Below the pieces are notes generated by a model that was given only the letters and a program-made list of their open reading frames with translations, was not told the origin of the DNA and ran no database searches. The position numbers and the translations under genes are program-made. This document shows positions 38,864 through 51,131 of a DNA stretch of 64,000 nt, in pieces; the stretch's first letter is position 1; each line of letters begins with the position of its first letter. The stretch comes from an uncultured Clostridium sp. (GTDB taxonomy: Bacteria; Bacillota; Clostridia; TANB77; CAG-508): positions 13,462-77,461 of the forward strand of contig CANPOS010000002.1 in assembly GCA_947575745.1 (NCBI GenBank), given 5' to 3'.

Positions 38864-40522
38864 CTAATTTTGCTCTGCACTTGAGTTAATATACTCAGAT
38901 GCCTTAATAATATCTCTTCTTTCCCTTGCTAATGCTCTATAATATGCTAGTCGTCTTTGGTCATATGTTGGACTTATTGCAAGCCATCTATCTTCTCCAT
39001 ATTTCTCTTCTATTGTATCCTCTGTTCCTAATTCTGCTTCCATTGCATTTATTACACAATAATAACAAGCGTTTTCCGTGTGTGGATAGTAGTAAACTGA
39101 AGACTGCCTTCCATCTCTTATCTCTTTTAATTGTTCTCCTCTTGCAATTAAAGAATTATTTGATTTTTCAATTGCAACTTGTCTTGAGAATTCTGTCCTA
39201 TTATATCCTACTATTGTAAGTCTATTTTTATCTAATCCATCTCCTAGATGTGGACAACCAATTCTGTGATATGAGCCATCTGTTTCATAAGTTCCATCTG
39301 AATTTTCTTGATAAGCTATATAATATAGATCTGTTTCACTAACATGTTGCTCATTTTCTGTACTTGGTATTATTGCATAATTGTTATATGTTGTTGTTCC
39401 TGTGACAAGTCCTTGTACAAAACTTACTACACACACATTGTTAAGTATTTTATCCCAATCATATACTGTAAATTGTGGCATATTAAATTCTGGTGTAGTA
39501 GCTGTTGCTGTTGATTTTTTTCCATATGTCGCCATTGCTTGTATCAAATTATTTGTTATTTTATCTTGTATTACTCTAATTCTTTCATCATTGAAATCAG
39601 AATTTTGGACTGGATTATCTTTTGTTATTTTTAAAATATTTTCAAATTCTCTTGTTTCTTCTCTATAACCTGATGGAGCATTTGTATCTTCTCTTTTTAC
39701 TACTCTTTTTGGCTTTACGTCTTCCATTAAATTATTATACCAATTTGTAAATTCATAAGCTGCAACATAATAATCATACGCACTTGTTGAATTCTTTGTA
39801 TTAATCCTTGTTCTAAAATTTTCAATAGAAACAGTACCATCATTTGAAACTACGCTGTATTCATATTCGTTTTCCCTAAGTGTTTCATTTCTTGGTATTT
39901 CTATTCCATTATATGTCACTACATAACGTCCTTCATTATCATTTCCAGCATATACTCCTTCTCCGTAAGCCCTATCAGCAATAACTTCAAGATATCCTGC
40001 TCTTGATTGATACCTTTCATGTGCTTCATCATTATCATAATATACTGCAACATAGTTATCTAAAGTATAGTTTATTACTATCTTTTCCTTTCCATTTACA
40101 TATTCCTCTGTATAATATATATATGGCTTTAAAGCGTGTTCATAGTATAAATCTTCTGGTGATCTTGTTGGTGTATATATATAATATCCATCATATAAAG
40201 TAAATAGAATTGCTGGGACAAAGTTCATTACATTTGCTTTACTAGTTCCTCTAAGTCCTAACCCAGTTCCAAAAGAGTTTGAGAACACATTAATAGATGC
40301 TTCTATATCTCTAATTAATGAGTCAGAAACTGTTGAATATTTGTTATTTGTGCTATTAAGTTGGAAAGCAGATAACATGTCATACGTAGCACCTAAAAAA
40401 GTACTATCATAAGAAGCTTGTAAATTTGCTGCATCTACTTGATAATTTACATACACAGATAATATTAAAATAACTGGTAATGCAATTACAATGAATATTA
40501 TTATTAAGTTTTGTAGTCTCAT
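38864..40522 (-). CDS. large secreted/membrane-anchored protein at the distal end of the Tad-like locus (TadG-like position)
   Basis: 552 aa, N-terminal TM/signal (LIIIFIVIALPVILIL), Tyr/Asn-rich extracellular domain. Confidence 0.3.
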   Translation of the reverse strand: MRLQNLIIIFIVIALPVILILSVYVNYQVDAANLQASYDSTFLGATYDMLSAFQLNSTNNKYSTVSDSLIRDIEASINVFSNSFGTGLGLRGTSKANVMNFVPAILFTLYDGYYIYTPTRSPEDLYYEHALKPYIYYTEEYVNGKEKIVINYTLDNYVAVYYDNDEAHERYQSRAGYLEVIADRAYGEGVYAGNDNEGRYVVTYNGIEIPRNETLRENEYEYSVVSNDGTVSIENFRTRINTKNSTSAYDYYVAAYEFTNWYNNLMEDVKPKRVVKREDTNAPSGYREETREFENILKITKDNPVQNSDFNDERIRVIQDKITNNLIQAMATYGKKSTATATTPEFNMPQFTVYDWDKILNNVCVVSFVQGLVTGTTTYNNYAIIPSTENEQHVSETDLYYIAYQENSDGTYETDGSYHRIGCPHLGDGLDKNRLTIVGYNRTEFSRQVAIEKSNNSLIARGEQLKEIRDGRQSSVYYYPHTENACYYCVINAMEAELGTEDTIEEKYGEDRWLAISPTYDQRRLAYYRALARERRDIIKASEYINSSAEQN

Positions 40523-40590
40523 ATATTTTCTCCTATGTTAACAAGAAAATTAACCTTGTAGAATAGGCAAAATTAAAAATTTTGACTATT

Positions 40591-40621
40591 CTATTAAAAA
40601 TGGGCGCTCAATTAGTCGCCC
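40591..40621 (-). terminator. rho-independent terminator (stem gggcg/cgccc)
   Basis: GC stem followed by U-tract on the minus transcript, downstream of 40636..41163. Confidence 0.45.
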
Positions 40622-40635
40622 CTATTAATTAAATA

Positions 40636-41163
40636 TTATTTACTTCCATTTACTGCAACAATTCCAGTTTGTGAAGCAACTATACTATATGTATTTGTTC
40701 CAGATAAACTATAAAAGAAATTCTTAAGCGATTGAGATATTGTTTTATTGTTATTTGATGCACTTACTGTTACCATATCCCCTTCTTTAAGTATATAAAA
40801 TCCATTTCTGTCCAATTCATTTATTACCTGAGAAGTATATACTGTATAATATATATTTTCTCCTATTTTTGTTTCGTCTGCCTGAGTAGTCTTTTTAGAT
40901 GGGTTATCATCCAAAACTTGTATCTCTAGTGTTACATCATAAGTATTTCCAGTAGAATATAACTCCATAACTAATGAATCATAAGTGTCTCTAGTTATTT
41001 TACCAGTTTTTCTAACTGTATCTACAAATTCTGTAATAGAAGTTTGTACTGATAATTGAGATATATCATCATTTCTATCTGCAATAGCCATCATTGGGAA
41101 AATACCAATTAATATTGCTGCTAGAAATATAGCTATTATTGTTGTTAAAGTTTCTCCACTCAT
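40636..41163 (-). CDS. pilin/pseudopilin-like protein (N-terminal TM anchor)
   Basis: 175 aa; MSGETLTTIIAIFLAAILIGIFPMMAIA then soluble domain. Confidence 0.35.
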   Translation of the reverse strand: MSGETLTTIIAIFLAAILIGIFPMMAIADRNDDISQLSVQTSITEFVDTVRKTGKITRDTYDSLVMELYSTGNTYDVTLEIQVLDDNPSKKTTQADETKIGENIYYTVYTSQVINELDRNGFYILKEGDMVTVSASNNNKTISQSLKNFFYSLSGTNTYSIVASQTGIVAVNGSK

Positions 41164-49409: not shown

Positions 49410-49412
49410 ATT

Positions 49413-50111
49413 CTATACTTCCTTTTCTAAATTTTTTATAATTTTTGAAATTTCTTTTGCTGGAATCTCTTCTGCAAAAATGTTTTGTATTAAATATTGT
49501 AAACTGTTTTTATAGTGATCACTGAGCCTTTTAATTTTAATTCTTGATATTATTTGGTTTTCTACTGTAACACTATAATTTCCAAGCTCTATTGGGAAAT
49601 TTATAATTTCTTTATCCCATTTTATTTTATATCCTAATGATAAATAATCTAAATATTCATTTTCTTCTTTCAACATGCTTTTTGAAAATAGCACTTTTGT
49701 AAGTTTTATTGGAACAGTACAAGCACTTAATATTTCCAAGCCTCTTTTTAGTGAATATAAATCAAAAGCTGTAACGAAGCAATTATTATCATTTTTCATT
49801 GCATTAAAGCTTTGGAACATTTCTGGTGAATCTATATCTAAAATTGCTATATCATAATCAAGTGGTTTATCTTCATATCCTAAATACTCTTTAATTTCAT
49901 CCATATTTTTAAAACCAACAGCTACATCAAATCCTTCAAATTCAGTAACATATGTTCTTGTTGGGTTTATTGCTGGTACAACATATTTTGCTTTTTGATT
50001 TACTGTTGCATCTATTAATATTACTTTTTTCTTTGCTAGTGTAATAATTCTTGCCACGTATAACACTAAGTCTATTTTATCATATCCCCCTAAAAAGCCT
50101 ATTGTTTTCAT
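49413..50111 (-). CDS. second ParA/MinD-like (CpaE/TadZ-like) protein, Walker A lysine absent
   Basis: MKTIGFLGGYDKIDLV...; fold-level similarity only. Confidence 0.35.
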   Translation of the reverse strand: MKTIGFLGGYDKIDLVLYVARIITLAKKKVILIDATVNQKAKYVVPAINPTRTYVTEFEGFDVAVGFKNMDEIKEYLGYEDKPLDYDIAILDIDSPEMFQSFNAMKNDNNCFVTAFDLYSLKRGLEILSACTVPIKLTKVLFSKSMLKEENEYLDYLSLGYKIKWDKEIINFPIELGNYSVTVENQIISRIKIKRLSDHYKNSLQYLIQNIFAEEIPAKEISKIIKNLEKEV

Positions 50112-50237
50112 ATTTGCTTATATTTCCTTTCTATGATTTCTGATTATGCAAGTAAAAGTAAAGGCTATTTGTAGCTTTTACTTTTACTTAGTATGTGAAG
50201 GAATTGTTTAGAGCTTTCTTCACATATAATTTATATT

Positions 50238-51131
50238 TTAATATAAAGTTAATGAATCAACATATTGTTGTCTTGCGCTTTGTTGTTTTTGAATTTCTTC
50301 TGCAACTTTATCTTGTACATTTGATATTGCATCTCCTGCAAAACTATTTACTGCTGAATTTATAGTATTATTTCTTTGTGCTCTTGCTAACTCAGTATAT
50401 CTTGTAGCCAATGCATTTCTAGCTGTTCCTGCTATGTTAGGATCTGCATCCATTAAATTCATTATTGAAGATGATACTACATATGTTGGAGTTGTAGAGT
50501 CTTGTATTCCTGCATCTGTATATGTTGTTGCATATAAAAGTGAGCCTTCCATTATATATGCTTCAACTATTGCATTGCTCATTGTTAATATTTCGTCTTC
50601 TCTTACTTTTATCCATATAGTATTAGCACTTGATTGTTCTATATGTTTTTTTGATATTACTATATAGTCCTCTCCTGAAGGAAGTCTTAGTCTTATATCT
50701 ACAGAATCCCCTGTTCTTAAATTAGTTGGTAATATAACCATATTATATTCTTGTAACCTTACATCTGGTGTATCTGGTTGTCCATCTATATTAACCATAT
50801 CTGTAGTTAATATTGTTCCTGCTTCAAGTCCTATTTTAGCAGTTGTAAGTTCTGAAATATAAGTTCCATAATTTTCTAAAGTTATTGCATTATTTGGCGC
50901 AACTGTACTATCTACTTTTTTAGTTATAAGGCTTCCATCTATTTTTCCTCCAGATGTAATATCTTGGCTAATAACATATACATCTTTATATATTATTGCT
51001 GCTTGCTCTTTCTTTATTTTACCTAATTGAAGTATTAAAAATACTATAACTATACCTGTTAATATTAAAGTTAAAAACATTCCTAATAAAAATGATGTTC
51101 TAGCTTTCTTTTGCATTGGATTCATTGCCAT
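50238..51131 (-). CDS. CpaB/RcpC-like Flp pilus assembly protein (N-terminal TM + SAF domain)
   Basis: N-terminal TM helix FLLGMFLTLILTGIVIVFLIL, then VYVISQDITSGGKIDGSLITKKV (SAF-like); first gene of the locus. Confidence 0.55.
   Translation of the reverse strand: MAMNPMQKKARTSFLLGMFLTLILTGIVIVFLILQLGKIKKEQAAIIYKDVYVISQDITSGGKIDGSLITKKVDSTVAPNNAITLENYGTYISELTTAKIGLEAGTILTTDMVNIDGQPDTPDVRLQEYNMVILPTNLRTGDSVDIRLRLPSGEDYIVISKKHIEQSSANTIWIKVREDEILTMSNAIVEAYIMEGSLLYATTYTDAGIQDSTTPTYVVSSSIMNLMDADPNIAGTARNALATRYTELARAQRNNTINSAVNSFAGDAISNVQDKVAEEIQKQQSARQQYVDSLTLY

Follow-up and report, generated by a model that had tools for sequence, protein, structure and literature searches.

The closest described relative of the locus considered here, a row of 12 genes within a 64,000-nucleotide (nt) stretch of contig CANPOS010000002.1 from an uncultured Clostridium sp. 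(this whole stretch is called the window below), is the 'pilus gene cluster' 927–938 of HRGM_Genome_2725 (Kim et al. 2024, Nat Commun 15:10726; PMC11680825). This 12-gene cluster is present in 122 of the 129 TANB77 species and encodes proteins of 358, 231, 280, 640 (one transmembrane (TM) helix), 693 (eight TM helices), 165, 170, 143, 146, 237, 178 and 621 amino acids (aa). Components were assigned by Foldseek and eggNOG: the first five proteins are CpaB, TadZ, CpaE, TadA/CpaF and a 693 aa protein with TadC- and TadB-like halves, and the remaining genes encode six small pilin-like proteins and the 621 aa protein (938), whose N-terminal quarter is TadE/PilV-like, this N-terminus being only a partial structural match to TadE/PilV. 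Recombinant 938 activates dendritic cells via TLR4 and makes anti-PD-1 more effective in mice, and TANB77 abundance predicts the response to checkpoint blockade. The cluster was considered essentially exclusive to TANB77, as judged within a human-gut genome catalogue. The word 'prepilin' does not occur in that paper and the MENAxxAL N-terminus of the small proteins is not discussed (PMC11680825). The TLR4 activity of 'pilin 938' and the link of TANB77 to checkpoint blockade already make this cluster biomedically interesting; the machine itself cannot be studied directly because TANB77 is uncultured.

The window, which comes from a gut-metagenome contig (ENA ERZ14651024), carries 12 co-oriented open reading frames (ORFs) on the minus strand (51131–38864), named g1–g12 (Table 1). 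They correspond one to one to genes 927–938 in order, sizes and TM counts (these features were compared, not the sequences), receive the same assignments and belong to the same kind of host, i.e. uncultured, low-GC gut Clostridia. The GC content is low (26–30%), as expected for the TANB77 clade. No difference in kind separates the two clusters, and the window holds the copy of another species: this locus is the already known cluster of Kim et al. A first-pass annotation of the window, made from its letters alone, had listed 12 genes, all of which exist at the stated positions, and had described a Tad/Cpa-like locus with non-canonical components; its statement that the architecture matches no described system fails, because the cluster had been published with the same assignments (PMC11680825). 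We read the locus, with a probability of roughly 0.7, as the chromosomal, vertically inherited machine of a TANB77-type gut Clostridium for a Tad-like (type IVc-related) type IV filament. The description as Tad/Cpa-like is supported by the ATPase, the two ParA-like proteins, the SAF protein, the platform (at profile level) and the architecture of the pilin-like proteins, and that of non-canonical components agrees with the absence of a linked peptidase. The ATPase, the SAF protein and the ParA-like proteins are homologs of known families, and the platform is probably one too, as weak profile similarities suggest. By analogy with Cpa/Tad systems, the locus would form a filament with a function in adhesion, and the same analogy underlies the putative roles of its subunits, including priming or tip functions of g11 and g12.

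The 12-gene arrangement is far beyond chance: its synteny extends over every one of the genes in about 80 genomes at species level. The g4 ATPase has thousands of close relatives, named TadA or CpaF in metagenome-assembled genomes (MAGs) of 'Clostridia bacterium' and 'Candidatus Merdicola'. When each GTDB species was scanned in the form of one genome, at least 495 relatives emerged, and synteny was examined in the best 80. The first-pass annotation had proposed to look for conservation in related genomes, and it is complete: the order g1–g12 is kept in 80 of 80 loci, in most cases with the same HAD hydrolase and SpoIVB genes on the flanks. Nearly all of these best 80 are annotated as uncultured Clostridia MAGs, many of them from animal or human gut; they include CAG:575, CAG:389 and HRGM_Genome_3375, and the exceptions by annotation are one Bacteroidaceae and one Lachnospiraceae. 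Identity to the window proteins is highest for g4 (73–94%) and g5 (60–85%), followed by g11 (mostly 45–60%), g2 (~50%), g1 and g3 (~40%), and it reaches 23–64% for the small pilin-like proteins and ~30–55% for g12. The SpoIVB and SASP genes nearby might point to a role in sporulation, which was set aside as mere synteny because copies of the module carried by plasmids lack that gene context. Within the locus, intergenic gaps measure 3–262 nt and terminator-like sites are not more frequent than in shuffled sequence; the layout is of operon type. A simple hydropathy scan predicts one N-terminal TM segment each in g1, g4 and g6–g12, and eight in g5.

Only g4, among the locus proteins, exceeds a Pfam threshold (T2SSE, 28.4 bits for a cut-off of 24.9). 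Its closest solved structures are those of Caulobacter CpaF (8rkd, 8rjf and 9e24; E ~4e-9; residues 269–540 aligned), and, after the plasmid copies of the module, canonical CpaF proteins form the next tier of similarity, with an identity of only ~26% in the ATPase core. Among NCBIfam models, the TadA family scores best (32.9 bits), followed by ComGA (22.1), TrbB (19.3) and VirB11 (16.2), all of these scores being far below the cut-offs (300, 305 and 250 bits for the last three). As g4 also remains far under the equivalog cut-offs of the TadA models, it represents a distant branch; the best of these models describes its TadA family as 'conjugal transfer-associated'. Apart from this ATPase, no protein of the locus gave a match in PHROGs or NCBIfam. 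The motifs of g4 are intact (Walker A GEQGCGKTT at residue 378, IIGEV at 448, THHA at 475) and are preceded by an N-terminal TM helix (residues 7–25), so that the Walker A motif, the His box and the membrane anchor listed in the first-pass annotation are all present, and the conjugative VirB11 that it had named as an alternative is not supported by the scores. Thus, g4 is a TadA/CpaF-family T2SSE ATPase, as found in Tad systems. Its C-terminus (window 46519–46610) is a Lys/Thr-rich low-complexity tail (KSKTTTKTVTKTNKKTTTKKSTTRKKAE).

The g1 protein combines an N-terminal TM segment (residues 15–33) with a SAF domain, as do CpaB/RcpC-type proteins. The SAF match is sub-threshold in g1 itself (E=0.14) and is made by five of nine g1 homologs from distant loci (best E 3e-7), all nine of which match g1 at E<=3e-21; such homologs are present in 8/8 distant loci. 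The profile of the g1 family has the SAF domain of FlgA as its best match in the PDB (E=0.0015), and the CpaB-specific C-terminal domain was not detected in g1. Both g2 and g3 are ParA-like proteins with an atypical Walker A, as are TadZ and CpaE. The g2 family profile first hits the ParA-family structure 3ea0 (E=0.0011), then MinD and ParF; g2 itself has no Pfam match and contains neither GK[ST] nor any other P-loop. The g3 family profile also finds 3ea0 first (E=5e-5), followed by MinD, Soj and ParF, and g3, which begins MTIISFWNDNTGKIGQT, reaches 24.4 bits with AAA_31, under the 27-bit cut-off; its degenerate motif SFWNDNTGKIGQT was confirmed in the sequence. A comparison of the two families by hhalign shows that they are related (probability 81%, E=1.2e-5), and no N-terminal receiver-like domain was detected in either protein. 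The pair had been announced as degenerate ParA-like proteins, which agrees with a degenerate P-loop in g3, its absence from g2 and the ParA matches of both profiles.

The platform protein g5 belongs to a family of 1238 clusters at 50% identity and has no sequence match in Pfam, NCBIfam, PHROGs or the PDB, and neither a profile of 42 members nor a limit as loose as E<=10 changed this. When it was aligned by hhalign with a TadB/TadC reference profile built from three canonical plasmid Tad loci, two segments matched, residues ~130–325 (P=3.3e-4, 182 columns) and ~504–675 (P=1e-3, 166 columns), both collinear with that part of T2SSF proteins which is made up of TM, helical bundle and TM; the reversed-sequence control gave only 0.024–0.043 over 27 columns. 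These data suggest, with moderate strength, that g5 contains two T2SSF-like repeats of TadB/TadC type, recognisable only when profiles are compared with profiles; Kim et al. obtained an agreeing result with Foldseek. No internal repeat between the N- and C-terminal halves was found by hhalign with shallow or diverse alignments. The TadB/C-like character first attributed to g5 is suggested for the two aligned segments, and Pfam gives no T2SSF match.

Downstream of g5, g6–g9 are paralogous and have two motifs in common, FNxxFxxYxGK and, at the C-terminus, G(R)(I/V)xK(I/V)xF; g8 has FNxxFxxxxGK together with the C-terminal motif of g6, g7 and g9. The AlphaFold2 model of g7 (pLDDT 87, pTM 0.68) shows a helix at residues 2–55 followed by a small alpha/beta head composed of a helix and short strands; this predicted shape would be the 'lollipop' of type IV pilins, with a 54-residue N-terminal helix, hydrophobic in its first half, and a head. 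The 552 aa protein g12, first annotated as secreted, is better described as a single-TM, pilin-like protein (TM 7–25). Homologs of g11 occur in 8/8 distant loci, and those of g12 (~325 aa) follow the g11 homolog there. In 77 loci, 401 small ORFs lie between g5 and g11; about 300 of them start MENA[SATV][KDE]AL, of which 182 have exactly MENASKAL; the MENA[AV][DE]AL variant of g10 type recurs across loci and there is one MKK-type paralog (g8-like) per locus. Four starts of the form MENAS(K/D)AL had been reported for the window: four MENA starts are indeed present and the description is essentially right, g6 (MENASKFL) and g10 (MENAADAL) deviating from that formula. The first 15 residues are near-invariant in an alignment of g7 homologs and the rest is only 27–50% identical. 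Such hypervariable heads suggest exposure and diversifying selection, as in real pilins. A low-complexity C-terminal tail rich in Gly, Thr and Ser (AGAGSGTSGTTTGTGTGTSTPGTV) terminates g9 (window 42146–42220).

The start of these proteins is well defined. Each MENA gene (g6, g7, g9 and g10) has its own GGAGG ribosome-binding site, and a TAA stop lies directly 5' of the g7 ATG; no longer leader is therefore possible, and there is no doubt about the start codon or about how short the N-terminus is. The MENA leader is at most about 7 residues long. A 69-nt direct repeat, present in four copies (window 42060–42128, 42555–42623, 43629–43697 and 44331–44399), spans, in the four MENA genes, the ribosome-binding site and the ~17 codons at the start. 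The copies are only 61–77% identical, so that the 5' ends of the pilin-like genes have not undergone recent gene conversion, and the similarity looks like constraint at the protein level. Family-wide, the pilin-like proteins have a short, polar N-terminus, and no Gly is conserved ahead of the hydrophobic stretch. As stated at first, no Flp-type pilin is encoded: there is neither a match to Flp in Pfam nor a G/XXXXEY motif, for which a canonical Flp is exemplified by ...DEDGATAIEYGL in locus L098. Nor are the pseudopilins TadE, TadF or TadG recognisable, as there is no TadE match in Pfam and hhalign comparison of the profiles of the pilin-like proteins and of g11 with a six-sequence TadE/TadG profile gives a probability below 2%. 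The small proteins carry neither an LPXTG motif nor a lipobox or N-terminal Cys, which rules out that they are sortase or lipoprotein substrates, the other possibility left by the first-pass annotation.

The TadV/CpaA peptidase of Tad systems is missing at the level of the locus, and the claim that no prepilin peptidase gene is present was borne out in the locus, in the window and in 85 related loci, no ORF of which gave a phmmer match to Peptidase_A24. This family is also absent from seven of the eight distant loci, and none of the listed module-carrying plasmids is among the 60 listed of the 63 plasmids that match A24. The exception is the distant locus L086, on a 5.3 Mb contig of ~30% GC, where a 172 aa Peptidase_A24 gene (L086:468–986) lies beside a PP2C phosphatase gene, both directly upstream of the module and in its orientation; it is the sole A24 gene seen adjoining any copy of the module. 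One speculative explanation, which we consider rather doubtful, is that the MENAxxAL proteins are 'leaderless' pilins that polymerise without a prepilin peptidase, that the whole family, on plasmids of Bacillota as well as fixed in the TANB77 chromosome, is a peptidase-independent branch of the type IV filament superfamily and that its plasmid-borne ancestors served conjugation; the retained Met1-Glu2 would then stand in for what classical type IV pilins have in Glu5 and a processed N-terminus. An invariant N-terminus that differs from a class III signal peptide, together with the lack of a linked A24 gene, raises the question of whether a type IV filament can be assembled without prepilin processing.

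Compared with Tad/Flp systems (Caulobacter Cpa, Aggregatibacter Tad, Bifidobacterium breve Tad and the Streptomyces locus L099), the window has the same order of SAF/CpaB, ParA-like, TadA/CpaF and (here putative) TadB/TadC genes, followed by small proteins with an N-terminal helix and a large TadG-like protein, and likewise a single ATPase. It differs from them in that the TadB/TadC-like parts form one 691 aa chain unrecognised by Pfam T2SSF, that two separate degenerate ParA-like proteins lack a detectable receiver-like domain, that the ATPase is membrane-anchored with a core distant from that of canonical CpaF, and that the Flp pilin, the TadE-family signature and the linked TadV peptidase are missing. 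With the ComG systems of Bacillota, it shares a monoderm envelope and a single operon in which one T2SSE ATPase is combined with a single polytopic platform and a number of small pilin-like proteins; however, the ComGA similarity of g4 is negligible, the locus contains no ComGB/T2SSF match and no prepilin motif of the ComGC type, and SAF and ParA-like genes are absent from ComG operons.

The module also occurs outside TANB77. Distant g5 relatives (22–35% identity) keep the core order SAF, g2-like, g3-like, ATPase, platform, one to three pilin-like genes, g11-like and g12-like in the metagenome loci L086, L088, L090, L091 and L093. In addition, tblastn detected the platform on 35 PLSDB plasmids of 130–540 kb from cultured Bacillota. 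These plasmids belong to Paenibacillus (38% identity; ATPase E=2e-206; pART37 of Paenibacillus sp. 37, L094), Cohnella, Thermobacillus, Alkalihalophilus pseudofirmus OF4, Lysinibacillus sphaericus (pBsph, L095), Cytobacillus, Sporosarcina, Butyrivibrio proteoclasticus (pCY186, L096, and pCY360), Clostridium botulinum, C. argentinense and C. beijerinckii. As the same core module is carried by plasmids of cultured Bacillota, the exclusivity to TANB77 fails outside the human-gut catalogue. The ATPase core of the window is 70.6% identical to that of the Cohnella plasmid (H61) and ~40% identical to those of C. botulinum plasmids (H66/H67); because this ATPase from the class Clostridia is nearer to the Paenibacillaceae plasmid copy than to Clostridium plasmid copies, past exchange between plasmids and an ancestor of TANB77 is suggested. 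The cultivable Paenibacillus, Lysinibacillus and Butyrivibrio carriers could serve as genetic models for the pilus of uncultured TANB77.

The surroundings of these copies differ from those of the window locus. In L088, L091, L093 and pCY186, the neighbours include, some in each, genes for a type IV coupling protein (T4CP; T4SS-DNA_transf/TrwB), NlpC_P60 plus Hydrolase_2 wall hydrolases, an S1-domain protein, a topoisomerase and SSB (L091:1–3413, L093:2058–5249 and 20233–22016, L088:9217–11808, L096:12192–15263); no VirB4 is visible within the 10 kb flanks of the non-TANB77 copies. In pART37 and pBsph, the module follows replication and partition genes. The window copy has no such conjugation- or plasmid-type neighbours. 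All 35 module plasmids were typed 'non-mobilizable' by MOB-suite; pBsph-like plasmids have been reported as conjugative and able to mobilise IME8 (PMC13239906), and pBsph encodes homologs of VirB4, VirD4 and VirB6 and 'one pilus assembly ATPase' (PMC4363355). Outside TANB77, the module may encode a pilus with an assisting role in the conjugation of Gram-positive elements. R64 is likewise a conjugative plasmid that carries a type IV filament module beside or along with genes of a type IV secretion system (T4SS). The thin pilus of this IncI1 plasmid is of type IVb and has its own prepilin peptidase, PilU, and canonical prepilins. The window copy differs from R64 in being chromosomal and free of nearby transfer genes.

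Taken together, the Tad-like filament machine could work as follows. The membrane-tethered, CpaF-like hexameric ATPase g4 would turn the platform g5, in which two TadB/TadC-like repeats would form one chain. The platform would lift the bitopic pilin-like subunits g6, g7, g9, g10 and perhaps g8 out of the membrane, and these would polymerise through their invariant hydrophobic N-terminal helices into a fibre primed or capped by g11 and the large g12. The SAF protein g1 would be an extracytoplasmic collar, and the catalytically degenerate g2 and g3 would dock or position the motor in the same way as TadZ/CpaE. The fibre would most likely be a surface pilus for adhesion or colonisation, with fast-evolving exposed domains.

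Several observations weigh against this interpretation. As the clade is uncultured, nobody has yet seen a filament. The pilin-like proteins show none of the sequence hallmarks of type IV, Flp or TadE pilins. The head of the g7 model has no significant fold match in the PDB, where it resembles no solved pilin, and small proteins of the g6–g12 type match nothing in Pfam, NCBIfam or PHROGs. The near-invariant MENA-x-x-AL N-terminus is devoid of Gly-1, Glu+5 and Tyr+6, and no Peptidase_A24 was found by Pfam in the locus or among the multi-TM ORFs of the window. Finally, plasmid relatives adjoin conjugation genes, which hints at another primary role. The locus might accordingly be an accessory of DNA transfer, i.e. 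a mating-pair or DNA-uptake pilus that derives from a module of plasmids or integrative and conjugative elements and serves DNA exchange, not host adhesion, in TANB77, as likened to the R64 thin pilus or to the Flp-dependent transformation of Micrococcus. The core module on 35 large plasmids, the conjugation-type genes at the flanks of four copies, the conjugative pBsph-like plasmids with their VirB proteins and pilus ATPase (PMC13239906, PMC4363355) and the 'conjugal transfer-associated' model for g4 speak in its favour. We nevertheless hold it to be unlikely for the locus studied here: within 10 kb on either side, no T4CP, relaxase, wall hydrolase or ComEA/ComEC-type gene occurs in about 80 TANB77-type genomes and no T4SS gene flanks the window locus, the TANB77 locus lies in conserved synteny between housekeeping genes (HAD hydrolase and SpoIVB), and four to six fast-evolving pilin paralogs fit a fibre exposed to the host or environment better. 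The VirB11 and TrbB scores of g4 likewise argue against a conjugative T4SS.

A short pseudopilus or piston across the Gram-positive wall, resembling type II secretion or Com systems and exporting or displaying proteins such as g12, would account for the many 'minor-pilin-like' subunits without an obvious single major pilin, for the constant last position of the large g12 in the operon and for a membrane-anchored ATPase, unlike those of dynamic pili; this seems very unlikely, as no cargo genes are consistently linked, the similarity of g4 to ComGA is far below that to CpaF, and the hypervariable MENA heads suggest exposure and diversifying selection. That no filament system exists at all, the small proteins being ordinary bitopic membrane or wall proteins and the ATPase and g5 parts of some other membrane complex, would fit the lack of significant matches of the pilin-like proteins and g5 in Pfam, NCBIfam, PHROGs and PDB fold searches. 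This view has hardly any probability, since the fixed order of SAF, two ParA-like, CpaF-like ATPase, platform and N-helix proteins matches Gram-positive Tad loci (e.g. the Streptomyces plasmid locus L099) and is retained over very large distances.

Table 1. Genes of the Tad-like locus, in operon order; positions refer to the window, and counterparts to the cluster of HRGM_Genome_2725.
Gene	Position	Strand	Size (aa)	Features and putative role	Counterpart
g1	50238–51131	-	297	N-terminal TM and SAF-type domain; CpaB/RcpC-like	927
g2	49413–50111	-	232	ParA/MinD fold without Walker A; TadZ-like scaffold	928
g3	48552–49409	-	285	ParA-like, degenerate P-loop (NDNTGKIGQT); CpaE/TadZ-like	929
g4	46519–48525	-	668	membrane-anchored TadA/CpaF-like ATPase; Lys/Thr-rich C-terminal tail	930
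g5	44409–46484	-	691	platform, 8 predicted TM; read as TadB/TadC-type fusion	931
g6	43709–44386	-	225	pilin-like, MENASKFL start; TM 7–25	932
g7	43208–43684	-	158	pilin-like, MENASKAL start; TM 7–25	933
g8	42699–43151	-	150	paralog with hydrophobic MKK... N-terminus (MKKIVFS), without MENA	934
g9	42146–42610	-	154	pilin-like, MENASKAL start; Gly/Thr/Ser-rich C-terminal tail	935
g10	41426–42115	-	229	pilin-like, MENAADAL start	936
g11	40636–41163	-	175	single-TM, MSGETLTT start; best-conserved small subunit; candidate core minor pilin	937
g12	38864–40522	-	552	single TM 7–25, large extracytoplasmic part; candidate tip/modular minor pilin	938 ('pilin 938')

Some other features of the window lie outside the locus. 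A 103 aa ORF on the minus strand (52772–53083) has a long hydrophobic core and a Cys-rich end (...CCNRKNKKHNNNCCCCR), and the precomputed list of Pfam matches gives no family for it. A capsule/exopolysaccharide-type gene set lies upstream of the pilus locus, at positions 53941–58677. It consists of an 843 aa fusion of Wzz and a tyrosine-kinase-like protein, whose tail is a long coiled coil rich in Glu and Lys, together with a CpsB phosphatase and another copy each of the kinase and of Wzz. Some housekeeping genes seem to be split or truncated (37466–38679, 53289–53868, 31279–32344 and 28685–29158), namely an S55 peptidase SpoIVB (243 + 83 aa), an AhpC-type peroxiredoxin (66 + 154 aa), an MscS (160 + 214 aa, overlapping) and a fragment of an M50 peptidase; they could be real pseudogenes or result from assembly frameshifts at AT-rich homopolymers.

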